Origin: Escherichia phage 308Ecol101PP
Sequence record: OR062945.1
Length of the DNA: 64,000 bases
Strand: one strand, 5' to 3'
Part shown: in pieces, positions 7,006 through 33,727 of the stretch
Position numbering within the stretch: the stretch's first letter is position 1
Layout: each line of letters opens with the position of its first letter
The notes under the pieces: generated by a model
What the model was told of the DNA's origin: nothing
The model's database searches: none
What the model saw: the letters and a program-made list of their open reading frames with translations, nothing else
Program-made: the position numbers and the translations under genes

Positions 7006-9717
7006 ATGAAAGAATTTTACTTAACGGTTGAACAGATTGGTGATTCAATTTTTGAACGTTACATCGATTCTAACGGCCGTGAACGTACTCGTGAAGTAGA
7101 ATATAAACCATCACTGTTTGCTCATTGTCCAGAAAGTCAGGCTACGAAATATTTCGATATCTACGGTAAGCCGTGTACTCGTAAGTTGTTCGCCAATATG
7201 CGTGATGCCTCCCAATGGATTAAACGCATGGAAGATATCGGACTTGAAGCACTTGGCATGGATGATTTCAAATTGGCGTATTTGTCTGACACTTATAACT
7301 ATGAAATCAAATACGACCATACAAAAATTCGTGTGGCTAACTTCGACATCGAAGTAACATCTCCGGACGGGTTCCCTGAGCCGTCACAAGCAAAACATCC
7401 GATTGATGCTATCACTCATTATGACTCAATTGATGACAGGTTTTATGTATTTGACCTTTTGAATTCTCCATATGGTAATGTAGAAGAATGGTCTATTGAA
7501 ATCGCTGCTAAGCTTCAAGAACAAGGCGGTGATGAAGTTCCATCTGAAATTATCGATAAAATCATTTATATGCCGTTCGATAACGAAAAAGAATTGTTGA
7601 TGGAATATCTCAACTTCTGGCAACAGAAAACTCCTGTCATTTTGACTGGATGGAACGTTGAGTCATTTGATATTCCATATGTGTATAACCGAATCAAGAA
7701 TATTTTTGGCGAATCTACTGCGAAACGTTTATCACCACATCGTAAAACTCGTGTTAAAGTTATCGAAAACATGTATGGTTCTCGTGAAATCATTACATTG
7801 TTCGGTATCTCTGTTCTTGATTACATTGACCTTTACAAAAAATTCTCTTTTACCAATCAACCATCATATTCTCTGGATTACATTTCAGAATTTGAATTGA
7901 ACGTTGGTAAACTGAAATATGACGGCCCTATTTCTAAGCTTCGTGAAAGCAATCACCAACGATATATTTCTTATAACATTATCGACGTGTATCGTGTATT
8001 GCAAATTGATGCTAAACGTCAGTTCATCAACTTGAGTTTGGACATGGGTTATTATGCTAAGATACAGATTCAATCTGTGTTTAGCCCAATTAAAACATGG
8101 GATGCTATTATTTTTAATAGCCTTAAAGAGCAGAACAAGGTGATTCCACAAGGTCGTTCTCACCCGGTTCAACCTTATCCCGGCGCTTTTGTTAAGGAAC
8201 CTATTCCAAATCGATACAAATATGTAATGAGTTTCGACCTTACATCTCTGTATCCAAGTATTATTCGCCAAGTGAATATTAGCCCAGAAACAATAGCAGG
8301 AACGTTTAAAGTAGCTCCACTACATGATTATATTAACGCAATCGCTGAACGTCCTTCTGATGTGTACAGTTGTTCTCCTAACGGCATGATGTATTATAAA
8401 GACCGTGACGGTGTTGTTCCAACTGAAATCACTAAAGTCTTTAATCAACGTAAAGAACATAAAGGTTACATGCTTGCAGCTCAACGTAATGGCGAAATAA
8501 TTAAAGAGGCATTGCATAATCCTAATCTTTCTGTTGACGAACCATTAGATGTTGATTATCGTTTCGACTTCAGTGATGAGATTAAAGAAAAGATTAAAAA
8601 GTTGTCTGCTAAATCTCTTAATGAAATGTTGTTTAGAGCTCAACGTACTGAAGTTGCAGGTATGACTGCCCAAATTAACCGTAAATTGCTTATCAACTCA
8701 CTTTATGGTGCACTTGGCAACGTTTGGTTCCGTTATTATGATTTGCGTAATGCTACTGCAATCACAACATTCGGGCAAATGGCTTTACAGTGGATTGAAC
8801 GTAAAGTTAATGAATATCTGAATGAAGTTTGTGGCACAGAAGGTGAAGCTTTCGTTCTTTATGGTGATACAGACTCTATTTACGTATCTGCTGATAAAAT
8901 TATCGATAAGGTTGGTGAATCTAAATTCCGTGATACCAACCATTGGGTAGACTTCTTAGATAAGTTTGCACGTGAACGTATGGAACCAGCTATTGATAGA
9001 GGTTTCCGTGAAATGTGTGAATACATGAACAATAAACAACACTTAATGTTCATGGACCGAGAAGCTATCGCTGGGCCTCCACTCGGTTCTAAAGGTATTG
9101 GTGGATTCTGGACTGGTAAGAAACGTTATGCATTAAACGTGTGGGATATGGAAGGAACCAGATACGCTGAGCCTAAACTCAAAATCATGGGTCTAGAGAC
9201 TCAGAAATCTTCGACTCCTAAAGCAGTACAGAAAGCTCTTAAAGAATGTATTCGTCGTATGCTTCAAGAAGGTGAAGAATCATTACAAGAATATTTTAAA
9301 GAGTTTGAAAAAGAATTCCGTCAATTGAATTATATTAGCATCGCGTCGGTATCTTCTGCGAATAACATTGCTAAATATGATGTAGGTGGATTCCCTGGTC
9401 CTAAATGCCCGTTCCATATTCGTGGAATTCTGACGTATAACCGGGCTATCAAAGGTAATATCGATGCACCGCAAGTTGTAGAAGGTGAAAAAGTATATGT
9501 TCTGCCTTTACGTGAAGGAAACCCATTCGGTGATAAATGTATCGCATGGCCTTCTGGTACTGAAATCACAGATTTAATTAAAGACGATGTACTTCATTGG
9601 ATGGACTACACTGTTCTCCTTGAGAAGACATTTATTAAACCACTTGAAGGATTCACATCAGCAGCGAAACTCGATTACGAGAAGAAAGCATCTCTGTTCG
9701 ATATGTTCGATTTTTGA
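7006..9717 (+). CDS. 43: gp43 DNA polymerase (family B) with 3-prime to 5-prime exonuclease
   Basis: 903 aa; exo motifs FDIEV, YNIIDV; pol motifs SLYPSII, YGDTDS, KxxxNSxYG; sequence matches RB69 gp43 as I recall it. Confidence 0.98.
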   Translation: MKEFYLTVEQIGDSIFERYIDSNGRERTREVEYKPSLFAHCPESQATKYFDIYGKPCTRKLFANMRDASQWIKRMEDIGLEALGMDDFKLAYLSDTYNYEIKYDHTKIRVANFDIEVTSPDGFPEPSQAKHPIDAITHYDSIDDRFYVFDLLNSPYGNVEEWSIEIAAKLQEQGGDEVPSEIIDKIIYMPFDNEKELLMEYLNFWQQKTPVILTGWNVESFDIPYVYNRIKNIFGESTAKRLSPHRKTRVKVIENMYGSREIITLFGISVLDYIDLYKKFSFTNQPSYSLDYISEFELNVGKLKYDGPISKLRESNHQRYISYNIIDVYRVLQIDAKRQFINLSLDMGYYAKIQIQSVFSPIKTWDAIIFNSLKEQNKVIPQGRSHPVQPYPGAFVKEPIPNRYKYVMSFDLTSLYPSIIRQVNISPETIAGTFKVAPLHDYINAIAERPSDVYSCSPNGMMYYKDRDGVVPTEITKVFNQRKEHKGYMLAAQRNGEIIKEALHNPNLSVDEPLDVDYRFDFSDEIKEKIKKLSAKSLNEMLFRAQRTEVAGMTAQINRKLLINSLYGALGNVWFRYYDLRNATAITTFGQMALQWIERKVNEYLNEVCGTEGEAFVLYGDTDSIYVSADKIIDKVGESKFRDTNHWVDFLDKFARERMEPAIDRGFREMCEYMNNKQHLMFMDREAIAGPPLGSKGIGGFWTGKKRYALNVWDMEGTRYAEPKLKIMGLETQKSSTPKAVQKALKECIRRMLQEGEESLQEYFKEFEKEFRQLNYISIASVSSANNIAKYDVGGFPGPKCPFHIRGILTYNRAIKGNIDAPQVVEGEKVYVLPLREGNPFGDKCIAWPSGTEITDLIKDDVLHWMDYTVLLEKTFIKPLEGFTSAAKLDYEKKASLFDMFDF

Positions 9718-31568: not shown

Positions 31569-31598
31569 GTTTACAACCAAGGACGGTTGGAGTATAAT
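31569..31598 (+). promoter_or_regulatory. early promoter
   Basis: GTTTAC, 18-nt spacer, TATAAT. Confidence 0.6.
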
Positions 31599-31628
31599 CT
31601 TTCTATCTTAACCAAACGGGAAACAATT

Positions 31629-32123
31629 ATGAATATCAATACTACGTCTACTTACATCCTGAAAGACGAAAAACAAATCAACTGGTACGGTGCTTCAGTG
31701 CGAGCTTATGAAAAGTTTTGTGAAATTTTAGGTGCCACTCAAGGTAATAGTTTCACTATTGTTAACTTCATCAAACAAGTTGAAGGCCCTTGGTTATTCT
31801 TAGAAATTAAAAATTCATACGGTACAATTTCTACTACTGCCCTTCCGAGCACCGACTTTGAACTCTTGATTGAAGAAGCACCTGTTAAAGATGGTCTCCA
31901 CTTTGATATGGATATCGTTTGTATGTACGGTACTCTGATTAAGCCTATTGAGCCTACTGATTTATTGTGTAAATATGTTTCAATTCGACGCCCATTCGAT
32001 GGTCCAGTAAATGGATGGGTAACTGACCAGTGGATTGAAGATGGGGTTGAACTTCTGAACGTTGTTCATGCCGGTGATTTTAGTGTGGTTCCGCGTAGTG
32101 CTGTGGTTAATATCCTTAATTAA
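31629..32123 (+). CDS. hypothetical protein, member A of a tandem paralogue family (conserved C-terminal DQWIEDG module)
   Basis: 164 aa from ATG 31629 (ORF track begins at 31587 inside the promoter); C-terminus GWVTDQWIEDGVELLNVVHAGDFSVV. Confidence 0.5.
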   Translation: MNINTTSTYILKDEKQINWYGASVRAYEKFCEILGATQGNSFTIVNFIKQVEGPWLFLEIKNSYGTISTTALPSTDFELLIEEAPVKDGLHFDMDIVCMYGTLIKPIEPTDLLCKYVSIRRPFDGPVNGWVTDQWIEDGVELLNVVHAGDFSVVPRSAVVNILN

Positions 32124-32125
32124 TG

Positions 32126-32155
32126 TTGTACATCCAAGGATGGATGGAGTATAGT
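32126..32155 (+). promoter_or_regulatory. early promoter
   Basis: TTGTAC, 18-nt spacer, TATAGT; spacer resembles that of the promoter at 31569. Confidence 0.5.
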
Positions 32156-32183
32156 GAATTCAATTTAAACAAAGAGAGAAATT

Positions 32184-32714
32184 ATGATTACTATTGGTGA
32201 AATCCTTCGTGTATCTCCTGCTTCTCGTTCTAAAGCTGCAGGTCGTCTGGTTGAAGTAGCAGGACTTCGTACTAACGGCATGGGACGTGTTAAAGAAGTT
32301 AAAGTTCGAATCATCCCCAGTTTTGGCGGACAAGACGCCCAGTATGCTTACGTAAGTCCTAAATTCCTGGAAAAACATATACGAGTCCAATTTGCTTCAA
32401 GCGAAGAAGTTGCACCTGCACACTTTGCTTCTGTTGAAGAAGTTGAATCACGTGATGGATACGTATGTGAATCCACTGAGCCTAATGTACAGTTCAAATG
32501 GGCCCTTTGCAAAGGCGTTGAATTTATAACCGATAAAGAATTTGATTACATCGACGAATACGGTTATCCAAGCAAAACTGATATTATGTGTGGCTTCATT
32601 AGTGACCAATGGGTTGAAGATGGTGAAAAGTTATACAATATCGTATTCTTAGGTGACTTCCGAGTTGTTAAAGAATCTGAAATCACTCGCTATGTGTCTC
32701 CTCGTAAAGCTTAA
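32184..32714 (+). CDS. hypothetical protein, member B of tandem paralogue family
   Basis: 176 aa; N-terminus SPASRSKAAGRLVEV and C-terminus GFISDQWVEDGEKLYNIVFLGDFRVV shared with member C. Confidence 0.55.
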   Translation: MITIGEILRVSPASRSKAAGRLVEVAGLRTNGMGRVKEVKVRIIPSFGGQDAQYAYVSPKFLEKHIRVQFASSEEVAPAHFASVEEVESRDGYVCESTEPNVQFKWALCKGVEFITDKEFDYIDEYGYPSKTDIMCGFISDQWVEDGEKLYNIVFLGDFRVVKESEITRYVSPRKA

Positions 32715-32723
32715 GGAATTATT

Positions 32724-33143
32724 ATGAATATTGTAAATCTCTCTACAGGTGATTACGTATATGTATCTGTTGCTTCTCGCTCTAAAGTTGCCGGGAAGTT
32801 GGTTGAAGTTCTTTCTGTGAGTGATCCGGTTTTTGGTCGTAACCAAGTTAAAGTTCGTGACGCTGATGGCAACATTGGTTACGTTAAAAGCCAATTCATT
32901 GAACCGGAAGAAAAAGCGTTCAAATGGAAACTGTGCAGGTCTGTTTTAGTTGTAAAAGACCATGAATTTACTATTGCTGCTGCAACTGACGGGTCTCCAT
33001 GGTCAACGAATCAAGTTGCTGGTTTTATTTCGGACCAATGGGTAGAAGATGGTGTTAAGCTTTATAACATCGTTTTCGCTGGACAGTTCATGGTAGTTCC
33101 TGAGTTCCAAATCAAAAAATATTGTCCAGCATCTTTTGCATAA
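32724..33143 (+). CDS. hypothetical protein, member C of tandem paralogue family
   Basis: 139 aa; SVASRSKVAGKLVEV and GFISDQWVEDGVKLYNIVFAGQFMVV. Confidence 0.55.
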   Translation: MNIVNLSTGDYVYVSVASRSKVAGKLVEVLSVSDPVFGRNQVKVRDADGNIGYVKSQFIEPEEKAFKWKLCRSVLVVKDHEFTIAAATDGSPWSTNQVAGFISDQWVEDGVKLYNIVFAGQFMVVPEFQIKKYCPASFA

Positions 33144-33202: not shown

Positions 33203-33727
33203 ATGTTAGTTTACCGCGTAGAACGTAGTTTTTGTACTCAACGTGAATCATTACCAGGAATTGCTATCGAAGATGGTAAAGCCGTCAGAATTTGGGAAAC
33301 CTCTTGGAATAAAGAACCTCGCTCGCCATACGGCTGGTCGGGCACCGACAACTCTGAAGAAACATGGGAGTTCCTTGATAAGCATGGAATACTCTCAGGT
33401 AACTTCTACCATCATGGCGACAACTATAATGTCCCTAATCGTCCTACAGTAAATGAAGACAAACTCCTTGAACAAAATATCTTAAGATACTATAGAATTG
33501 ATCACACATTTGAATTGAGTGAAGATTGGGCTCAAGGGTTCTATTTTGGATTTGAAAGTGTTGACGCGGTTTATGCATGGTTTGATGACCAGGTGGATGT
33601 TGAACTCTTGAAAGCTAAAGGATACTACATCGCGGTCTATGAAGCACCTGATTTCATCCTCGGAAGTTGTCAATTAATGTTTAGACGTTCATTGGCAGAA
33701 CAAGTTGATTTTATTTTGCTAAAATGA
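33203..33727 (+). CDS. hypothetical protein (174 aa)
   Basis: ATG 33203 after CAGAGGAGAATAAT; ORF track begins at 33122. Confidence 0.5.
   Translation: MLVYRVERSFCTQRESLPGIAIEDGKAVRIWETSWNKEPRSPYGWSGTDNSEETWEFLDKHGILSGNFYHHGDNYNVPNRPTVNEDKLLEQNILRYYRIDHTFELSEDWAQGFYFGFESVDAVYAWFDDQVDVELLKAKGYYIAVYEAPDFILGSCQLMFRRSLAEQVDFILLK

Follow-up and report, generated by a model that had tools for sequence, protein, structure and literature searches.

A tandem gene triplet in Escherichia phage 308Ecol101PP as a probable Mosigvirus version of the T-even motB block, with a C-terminal domain of predicted SH3/Tudor-like fold

In a 64,000-nucleotide stretch of the genome of Escherichia phage 308Ecol101PP (record OR062945.1; hereafter the window), three consecutive plus-strand open reading frames (ORF1, ORF2 and ORF3; Table 1) end in similar segments built around the motif DQW(I/V)EDG. 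Which genes are these, how long ago did they part, and what could a module that is repeated three times in a row contribute to the phage? An initial annotation of the locus, made from the letters alone, had taken the triplet for the product of a recent duplication of a module to which no function could be assigned. The latter statement is outdated, as the module corresponds to the C-terminal half of the Pfam family PF17613 (motB, modifier of transcription) and T4 MotB has been characterized experimentally (PMC6070864, PMC7827196). We consider it very probable that the triplet represents, in its Mosigvirus form, the T-even motB.1/motB/motB-like early block, situated between dexA and motB.2-cef-goF, and we extend this judgement to the whole explanation developed below, including its mechanism.

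All three proteins belong to PF17613, exceeding its gathering threshold of 25 bits with scores of 34.6, 123.2 and 79.2 bits for ORF1, ORF2 and ORF3, respectively; ORF2 covers the full length of the model and ORF1 its C-terminal half only. Likewise, the group phrog_1671, described as 'MotB-like transcriptional regulator', takes in ORF2 and ORF3 (E value of 3e-51 for ORF3), and ORF1 matches phrog_2333 (E 8e-81) with a secondary MotB-like match on its last 37 residues. A search of NCBIfam yielded no matches. In BLASTP comparisons ORF1 was 37% identical to T4 MotB.1 over 134 residues (E 4e-27), and identities to T4 MotB amounted to 42% for ORF2 (E 2e-40) and 39% for ORF3 (E 1e-26). ORF2 and ORF3 both display the 'Category 1' architecture of MotB, a KOW-like N-domain with the SRSKxAG block followed by an FKWxL...DQWVEDGxKLYN C-domain, from which ORF1 departs by its unrelated N-domain. 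ORF1 instead combines an N-domain homologous to that of T4 MotB.1 with the DPTDLLCK...GWVTDQWIEDGVELLNVVHAG C-domain of the MotB.1 proteins ('Category 2').

The genomic position points the same way. ORF2 lies in the dexA-cef region typical of motB, with a promoter-like site ahead of it, and the order dda, dexA, triplet, motB.2, cef, goF and 39.2 in the window is syntenic with RB69, where dexA is followed by motB.1, motB, the MotB-like gene RB69p010 (139 residues), motB.2, cef and goF. The window DNA is 95–97% identical to the Mosigvirus (RB69-type T-even) phages ST0 (97%), PNJ-6, NBG1 and HX01, and to judge by this identity it is Mosigvirus DNA. In the Mosigvirus records the annotations of the corresponding ORFs vary between MotB, MotB-like, transcriptional regulator and hypothetical protein.

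The DQW-motif module proposed as the common C-terminal element of the three ORFs was borne out by BLASTP as well as by profile searches. ORF2 and ORF3 align with 38% identity over 170 residues (E 7e-27), ORF1 and ORF3 with 62% over 29 residues (E 2e-10), and ORF1 and ORF2 with an E value of 2e-9. A profile of the C-domain run against all six-frame segments of the window retrieved exactly the three ORFs (E 5e-25 to 7e-31) and no further copy elsewhere in the 64 kb, the next match having an E value of 0.8. The initial description of nearly identical segments of about 30 residues holds for ORF2 and ORF3 (22/26 residues) but not for ORF1 (15/26, ~58%), and the segment, although real, was drawn too short, since the homology spans ~55 residues in ORF1 and ~75 residues in ORF2 and ORF3, whose C-domains carry an insertion of 17–20 residues past the first strand. 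Within the aligned segments of the triplet D-Q-W-x-E-D-G, L, N, V and G are invariant, and D, Q, W, E and G are so across 24 diverse family members. Furthermore, ORF2 and ORF3 do share the N-terminal SxASRSKxAGxLVEV block reported for them (VSPASRSKAAGRLVEV in ORF2 and VSVASRSKVAGKLVEV in ORF3), which is also discernible as a 67-nt DNA repeat of 72% identity.

The shared module was then modeled with AlphaFold2. The model of ORF2, based on a 65-sequence alignment and with a mean predicted local distance difference test score (pLDDT) of 78.5, comprises a β-rich domain at residues 1–62 (pLDDT 85–91), a stretch at residues 66–97 containing the duplicated FAS units (pLDDT <50) and a β domain at residues 101–176 (pLDDT ~90). 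The strands of this C-domain are formed by residues 111–123, 129–145, 148–155, 158–163 and 167–170, and a short helical turn precedes the final strand. Residues 88–164 of ORF1 (window 31890–32120), modeled alone with a 78-sequence alignment, likewise resulted in a barrel with pLDDT >90, comprising strands 29–32, 40–50, 53–60 and 63–68, a 3(10) turn and strand 72–76 in the numbering of the model. Both models are five-stranded barrels that agree in the β-β-β-3(10)-β order of their elements, and in ORF1 the long second strand ends with the DQWIEDG motif, which also makes up the hairpin that follows. Based on these predicted structures and on a generic similarity to small barrels, the shared C-domain would adopt a five-stranded SH3/Tudor-like β-barrel, with the invariant D-Q-W-x-E-x-G on its β2-β3 hairpin. 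The likeness between the proteins is not that of low-complexity sequence devoid of a common fold, as the strand order is the same, the pLDDT exceeds 90 and no low complexity is present. An OB-fold was not recovered for the C-domain, and the published HHpred assignment to this fold (PMC7827196) was not reproduced. Comparison of the ORF2 sequence and of the C-domain profile with all PDB chains gave nothing usable and hence no solved relative, and BFVD contained no significant match beyond MotB-family phage proteins. An internal duplication relating the N- and C-terminal barrels of MotB found no support either (hhalign probability 0.7%).

The two kinds of domain differ markedly in charge. The isoelectric point (pI) of the KOW N-domains ranges from 9.2 to 10.4, compared with 4.6–6.8 for the shared C-domains (7.95 in T4 MotB), and ORF1 as a whole has a pI of 4.6 and a net charge of −9. 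In addition, the residues that the barrel keeps invariant throughout the family (D, Q, W, E, G, L, N and V) include no basic one. Taken together, these values argue that the KOW domain, and not the barrel, would contact nucleic acid. In a rival arrangement, the shared barrel would itself bind DNA in the manner of an OB-fold or cold-shock domain, the N-domains would only modulate this activity, and all three proteins including ORF1 would coat DNA. The HHpred-based prediction (PMC7827196), the existence of DNA-binding structural neighbors such as PWWP, KIN17 and HspQ-type barrels, and the slightly basic C-domain of T4 MotB speak for such an arrangement, which the charge distribution nevertheless leaves rather doubtful. 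We accordingly retain the KOW domain as the candidate DNA-binding part.

To place the duplications in time we turned to substitution rates, calculated by the NG86 method. Synonymous divergence (dS) between the paralogs is saturated, being undefined for ORF1 versus ORF2 or ORF3 and 1.1 for ORF2 versus ORF3, and their nucleotide identity is 47–62%. Because of this saturation the ratio of nonsynonymous to synonymous divergence (dN/dS) between paralogs is uninformative, and orthologs from five Mosigviruses were compared instead. The resulting dN/dS values were 0.09–0.18 for ORF1, 0.07–0.52 for ORF2 and 0.13–0.32 for ORF3, next to 0.02–0.06 for dda and 0.03–0.11 for dexA, with a dN of 0.01–0.07 for the triplet versus 0.001–0.005 for the two neighbors. 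The triplet is thus under purifying selection, albeit less constrained than the neighboring replication genes, and the orthologous ratios of 0.07–0.52 do not support a diversifying burst.

The distribution of the genes gives a similar picture. Each paralog has its own ortholog in all five Mosigviruses, the RB69 counterpart of ORF1 being split by frame changes; ORF1- and ORF2-type genes are present in Tequatrovirus T4 and an ORF3-type gene in Tequatrovirus RB27, and tblastn detected three module copies per genome also in RB7 and Sf25. The duplications are old. The initial annotation was therefore right about paralogy and modular diversification, whereas the word recent does not stand against saturated dS and orthologs across genera. 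A recently duplicated and rapidly diversifying module, driven for example by an arms race with host defense, would fit the tandem arrangement, the faster dN of the triplet relative to dda and dexA, the variable length of the ORF2 linker and the shuffling of domains across the family; with paralogous synonymous sites saturated, dN/dS below 1 throughout and orthologs of every paralog in other phages and genera, we regard it as highly improbable. ORF3 is an older tandem copy of motB, and it is 89–96% identical to the homologous ORFs of RB69, HX01, NBG1, ST0 and PNJ-6.

The near-identical promoter spacers reported for two of the genes were confirmed: within the 64 kb CCAAGGAYGGWTGGAGTATA is found at 31577 and 32134 and nowhere else, even when three mismatches are allowed, against a chance expectation of 0.07. 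The spacers of the ORF1 and ORF2 promoters are identical at 18/20 positions, and the likeness continues into the leaders, with 73% over 45 nt (promoter-leader regions 31570–31616 and 32127–32173). Both sites are kept as a pair in 5/5 other Mosigvirus loci examined, and phage NBG1 carries a promoter annotation at the site homologous to the ORF1 promoter; in the T4, T6, RB27 and Dhakavirus loci examined the twin sites are absent. Shared regulation and gene conversion are both possibilities for such like spacers in front of two diverged paralogs. ORF3 starts 9 nt past ORF2 with an AAGGA ribosome-binding site of its own and without its own promoter, and the short gap together with this site suggests that ORF2 and ORF3 form a bicistronic unit.

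What the triplet may do can be approached through T4 MotB, the best-studied member of the family. This protein binds DNA tightly and independently of sequence, including DNA with glucosyl-hydroxymethylcytosine, co-purifies with H-NS and StpA, and leaves a footprint that dominates the one of H-NS in vitro (PMC6070864, PMC7827196). It is toxic to E. coli, relieves the repression of part of the H-NS regulon (75 host genes are up-regulated, of which about a third are under H-NS control) and increases the burst size two-fold, while leaving the phage transcriptome almost unaffected (PMC6070864, PMC7827196). By orthology, ORF2 and probably ORF3 would be made from the early promoter within minutes of infection, and would coat DNA and displace nucleoid proteins of the H-NS type or remodel them, to the benefit of the phage. 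The expression signals, an early-type promoter in the gap between ORF1 and ORF2 and a likely bicistron behind it, fit such an early role. As judged from charge and fold, the basic KOW domain would provide the contact to nucleic acid, and the acidic-to-neutral shared barrel may serve as a protein-contact module, either for self-association during cooperative coating or for a common partner of the H-NS/StpA type, or for both. ORF1 would then link this partner to an effector domain of another kind.

In a stricter version of this idea, the barrel would be a Tudor-like adaptor with no binding of nucleic acid at all and with one common partner, be it H-NS/StpA, another host protein or the paralogs themselves in hetero-oligomers. 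We put it forward as a tentative possibility. If true, interchangeable effectors, namely KOW for DNA, the LSm-like domain perhaps for RNA, and one or two LSm-like domains in other genera, would be directed to one host target, and the block would represent a modular host-takeover toolkit instead of three redundant DNA binders. Alternatively, the proteins could target RNA polymerase or the elongation complex directly, by means of a KOW domain of the NusG type and their Tudor-like barrel. NusG, RfaH, CarD and Mfd offer parallels for this, as does the name 'modifier of transcription', and we nonetheless deem it unlikely.

Several observations weigh against the explanation by DNA coating and early expression. 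ORF2 is net acidic, with a pI of 5.4 owing to its linker and C-domain, compared with a net charge of +6 and a pI of 9.2 for T4 MotB; given this charge and an identity to T4 MotB of only 42%, strong non-specific coating of DNA is not to be assumed for ORF2. A promoter scan of the whole window found 19 sites versus 21.8 in shuffled sequence, and since this is no excess, the promoters are predicted ones whose calls rest on position and conservation. T4 motB.1 deletion and amber mutants lack a growth phenotype, and a reporter assay found no MotB.1 activity (PMC12152347). Finally, in-silico work names the C-domain an OB-fold DNA-binding domain (PMC7827196). With these points taken into account, the early motB block acting on H-NS-type proteins is still the reading that we favor.

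ORF1 extends this picture to MotB.1. Its N-domain is putatively LSm-like by virtue of its homology to T4 MotB.1, for which this fold has been described (PMC12152347), and its C-domain groups with those of the MotB.1 proteins in the C-domain tree. The segment between the two domains is a conserved short motif that is contained in some MotB.1 forms of 164–169 residues and absent from those of 143–145 residues. It recurs as IDFDVVSTYVCPVKPLEIKEP near the N-terminus of a class of proteins of 180 or 250 residues and has a low pLDDT in the ORF1 model.

The reference versions of MotB.1 turned out to be defective in this C-domain. T4 reference motB.1 (NC_000866.4, record positions 7141–7650; 119 residues) ends in GWVTDQWIGRWR and a stop codon through one extra G (ATTGGAAGATGG), where the resequenced T4 strains GT7 and T4_583L, as well as T6 and RB27, have ATTGAAGATGG and an intact C-domain; in the T4_583L record MotB.1 is given with 143 residues. 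The remainder of the C-domain, EDGVELLNVVHAGEYSVVPRSAVVAILN up to its stop codon, is undamaged in the next frame of the T4 reference, within the 'intergenic' gap before motB. Most probably the extra G reflects either an error in the reference or a variant of the strain. The paper by Kim et al. 2025 cites NC_000866.4 and a MotB.1 of 13.8 kDa and nowhere uses the word 'frameshift'. The 119-residue T4 reference MotB.1, which recent experiments cite through this accession, thus lacks half of the barrel. In RB69, motB.1 (NC_004928, record positions 8376–8872; RB69p013, 132 residues) is broken by two frame changes. The 29-residue 'hypothetical protein' RB69p012, the 'Category 3 peptide' of Patterson-West 2021, is the out-of-frame tail of motB.1 (VVELLNVVHAGDFSVVPRSAVVNILN).

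The internal direct repeat noted in ORF2 was likewise found, as FASSEEVAPAH and FASVEEVESRD, with a 33-nt period and 80% identity between 32388–32412 and 32421–32445. The Mosigvirus orthologs of ORF2, counted after setting aside upstream mis-starts, have 151, 154, 157, 158, 165 or 176 residues and differ in length solely by the linker. This linker (32379–32483) is a hotspot of length polymorphism among Mosigviruses, with gain and loss of FAS-initiated units of ~11 residues, and its longest allele occurs in the window and in ST0. The allele of the window combines variant A (FASSEEVAPAH-FASNDIVEP) with variant B (FASVEEVESRDGYVCESTEP), joined at the FAS microhomology. The repeat is a length polymorphism in a disordered spacer and no functional repeat. 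Upstream-extended ORF2 forms of 172–197 residues and the 'split' annotation in HX01 were discarded as annotation artifacts, as the start of each extension falls within the promoter. A variable (GA)n/A-run just ahead of the ORF2 start codon, in the leader (for instance AAAGAGAGAAATT or AAAGAGAGAGAGAAATT; window 32125–32183 and five Mosigvirus sites), shifts the frame of an ATG inside the promoter, and this altered frame accounts for the long forms as well as for the HX01 split into 22 and 154 residues. In the ST0 record the ORF2 gene is unannotated.

To delineate the family beyond the window, we combined three homolog searches into a set of 266 proteins and clustered their N-terminal parts, yielding three architectures. 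The first consists of a KOW-type N-domain and the C-domain (ORF2, ORF3 and T4 MotB), the second of a MotB.1-type N-domain and the C-domain (ORF1 and T4 MotB.1). Proteins of the third, of ~180 or ~250 residues, carry a MotB.1-type C-domain 74–89% identical to that of ORF1 behind other N-terminal parts and have no member in the window. In a neighbor-joining tree of the C-domains (midpoint root, not bootstrapped), MotB-type and MotB.1-type sequences form separate clades, and within the former the ORF3 sequences are the sister group of the Mosigvirus MotB proteins. A tblastn search with the ORF3 C-domain matched 1474 places in 778 phage records named after Escherichia, Shigella, Enterobacteria, Yersinia, Klebsiella and Salmonella phages and Tequatrovirus; these names, and every taxonomy read, point to T-even-type phages. 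The C-domain profile matched only 37 clusters at E ≤1e-3 among 1.84 billion representative proteins. The 19 newly found matches that were read are small C-domain proteins, except for one and two short fragments, and new members mostly have the C-domain, of either type, behind a KOW-like N-terminus. The Pfam KOW threshold (PF00467, gathering threshold 22.3 bits) is reached by two distant members. The family is thus small, and KOW plus barrel looks to be its commonest and probably its older architecture.

Among proteins of 530–860 residues, P0281 was matched only through a repeated GYATEQWV(x)KGYLTxHQSL around the DQW motif and was rejected as spurious; the other long proteins with multiple matching stretches were discounted on the basis of P0281, the one inspected. 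A KOW N-domain joined to a MotB.1-type C-domain is seen in P0188 (Enterobacter phage ZX14) and in several distant proteins (P0269–P0279), combinations that imply shuffling of N- and C-domains within the family. P0031, a protein of 172 residues on a 1110-bp metagenome contig, has the body of ORF2 fused to the tail of ORF3 just past DQWVEDG, and is either a recombinational deletion between tandem paralogs at the conserved motif or an assembly chimera.

Downstream of the triplet, the ORF at 33203–33727 starts with MLVYRVERSF, resembling MKIYRVESSF of T4 MotB.2, and is 96.6% identical to the RB69 ORF annotated as motB.2. The gene order in T4 is dexA, motB.2, motB.1, motB and cef without a third copy, and in Tequatrovirus RB27 it is motB.2, motB.1, motB and then the ORF3-type gene. 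In the window and in RB69, motB.2 thus follows the motB genes, and in T4 and RB27 it precedes them, which marks a local rearrangement between the genera. T2 lacks both motB.1 and motB.2 at this locus.

Table 1 Features of the triplet locus in window coordinates, with residue numbers referring to the respective protein.
Feature	Position	Strand	Description
ORF1 promoter, T-even early-type (predicted)	31570..31598	+	TTTACA-17-TATAAT within GTTTACA...; 11/12 consensus matches
ORF1	31629..32123	+	intact motB.1 ortholog, 164 residues
ORF1 N-domain	residues 1–85	+	homologous to published LSm-like domain of T4 MotB.1
ORF1 interdomain segment	residues 86–108, nt 31884–31952	+	GLHFDMDIVCMYGTLIKPIEP
ORF1 MotB.1-type C-terminal barrel (predicted)	residues 109–164, nt 31953–32120	+	
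DQWIEDG motif, ORF1	32024..32044	+	β2-β3 hairpin of barrel (predicted)
ORF2 promoter, early-type (predicted)	32127..32155	+	TGTACA-17-TATAGT; twin of the ORF1 promoter
ORF2	32184..32714	+	motB ortholog, 176 residues
ORF2 KOW-like basic N-domain	residues 1–65	+	
ORF2 acidic linker	residues 66–100	+	predicted disordered
Duplicated 33-bp unit in ORF2 linker	32388..32456	+	FASSEEVAPAH / FASVEEVESRD; length-polymorphic site
ORF2 MotB-type C-terminal barrel (predicted)	residues 101–176, nt 32484–32711	+	
DQW-motif equivalent, ORF2	32603–32623	+	DNA repeat family, 81–90% identical
ORF3	32724..33143	+	second motB paralog, 139 residues; counterpart of RB69p010
ORF3 KOW-like N-domain	residues 1–58	+	followed by 6-residue linker
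ORF3 MotB-type C-terminal barrel (predicted)	residues 65–139, nt 32916–33140	+	
DQW-motif equivalent, ORF3	33032–33052	+	DNA repeat family, 81–90% identical

The genes, the PF17613 family, the shared C-terminal domain and the extra RB69-type copy are already known from the literature and GenBank annotation. Patterson-West et al. 2021 (PMC7827196) described a conserved C-terminal domain common to MotB and MotB.1, which differ in their N-terminal domains, suggested that one of the two genes arose by duplication of the other, and listed two motB copies, one motB.1 and the 29-residue peptide for RB69. The present analysis adds minor details, namely the prediction of an SH3/Tudor-like instead of an OB fold, the charge asymmetry of the domains, an explanation of the RB69 peptide and the single-base discrepancy in T4 motB.1. 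For work on host takeover by T4 these may be of modest use, as an acidic SH3/Tudor-like barrel would argue for KOW as the DNA binder.

Among the closest known systems is T4 MotB (NP_049626; PF17613), with which ORF2 aligns over its full length; ORF2 and ORF3 share its KOW-like N-domain and C-terminal barrel, and motB of T4 lies in the same early neighborhood near dexA, cef and goF with an early-type promoter directly upstream. Unlike T4 MotB, ORF2 is net acidic and has a longer, acidic, disordered linker with the duplicated 11-residue unit, whereas ORF3 is almost without a linker. The 'MotB-like transcriptional regulator' RB69p010 is the direct ortholog of ORF3, being 89% identical, of equal length (139 residues) and in the same place after motB, with no difference of substance. 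ORF1 corresponds to MotB.1 of T4 and RB69 (NP_049627; RB69p013 and RB69p012) in its location directly upstream of motB and its MotB.1-type C-domain, and is 91% identical to the RB69 protein over the N-part. In contrast to the T4 and RB69 reference proteins, which are frameshifted inside the C-domain, ORF1 is intact with 164 residues, and compared with the Tequatrovirus forms of 143–145 residues it contains an interdomain insert of 21 residues. With regard to fold, the closest known systems are the KOW domains of NusG/Spt5 and the SH3-like barrels of the 'royal family' (Tudor, PWWP, chromo and the BAH core); the C-domain lacks significant sequence similarity to solved structures. On the level of function, T7 gp5.5, T4 Arn and Mip of Pseudomonas phage LUZ24 offer an analogy, as early products proposed to relieve or redirect H-NS-type proteins. 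They do so by different routes: gp5.5 binds the oligomerization region of H-NS, Arn mimics DNA, and MotB is itself a DNA-binding protein.

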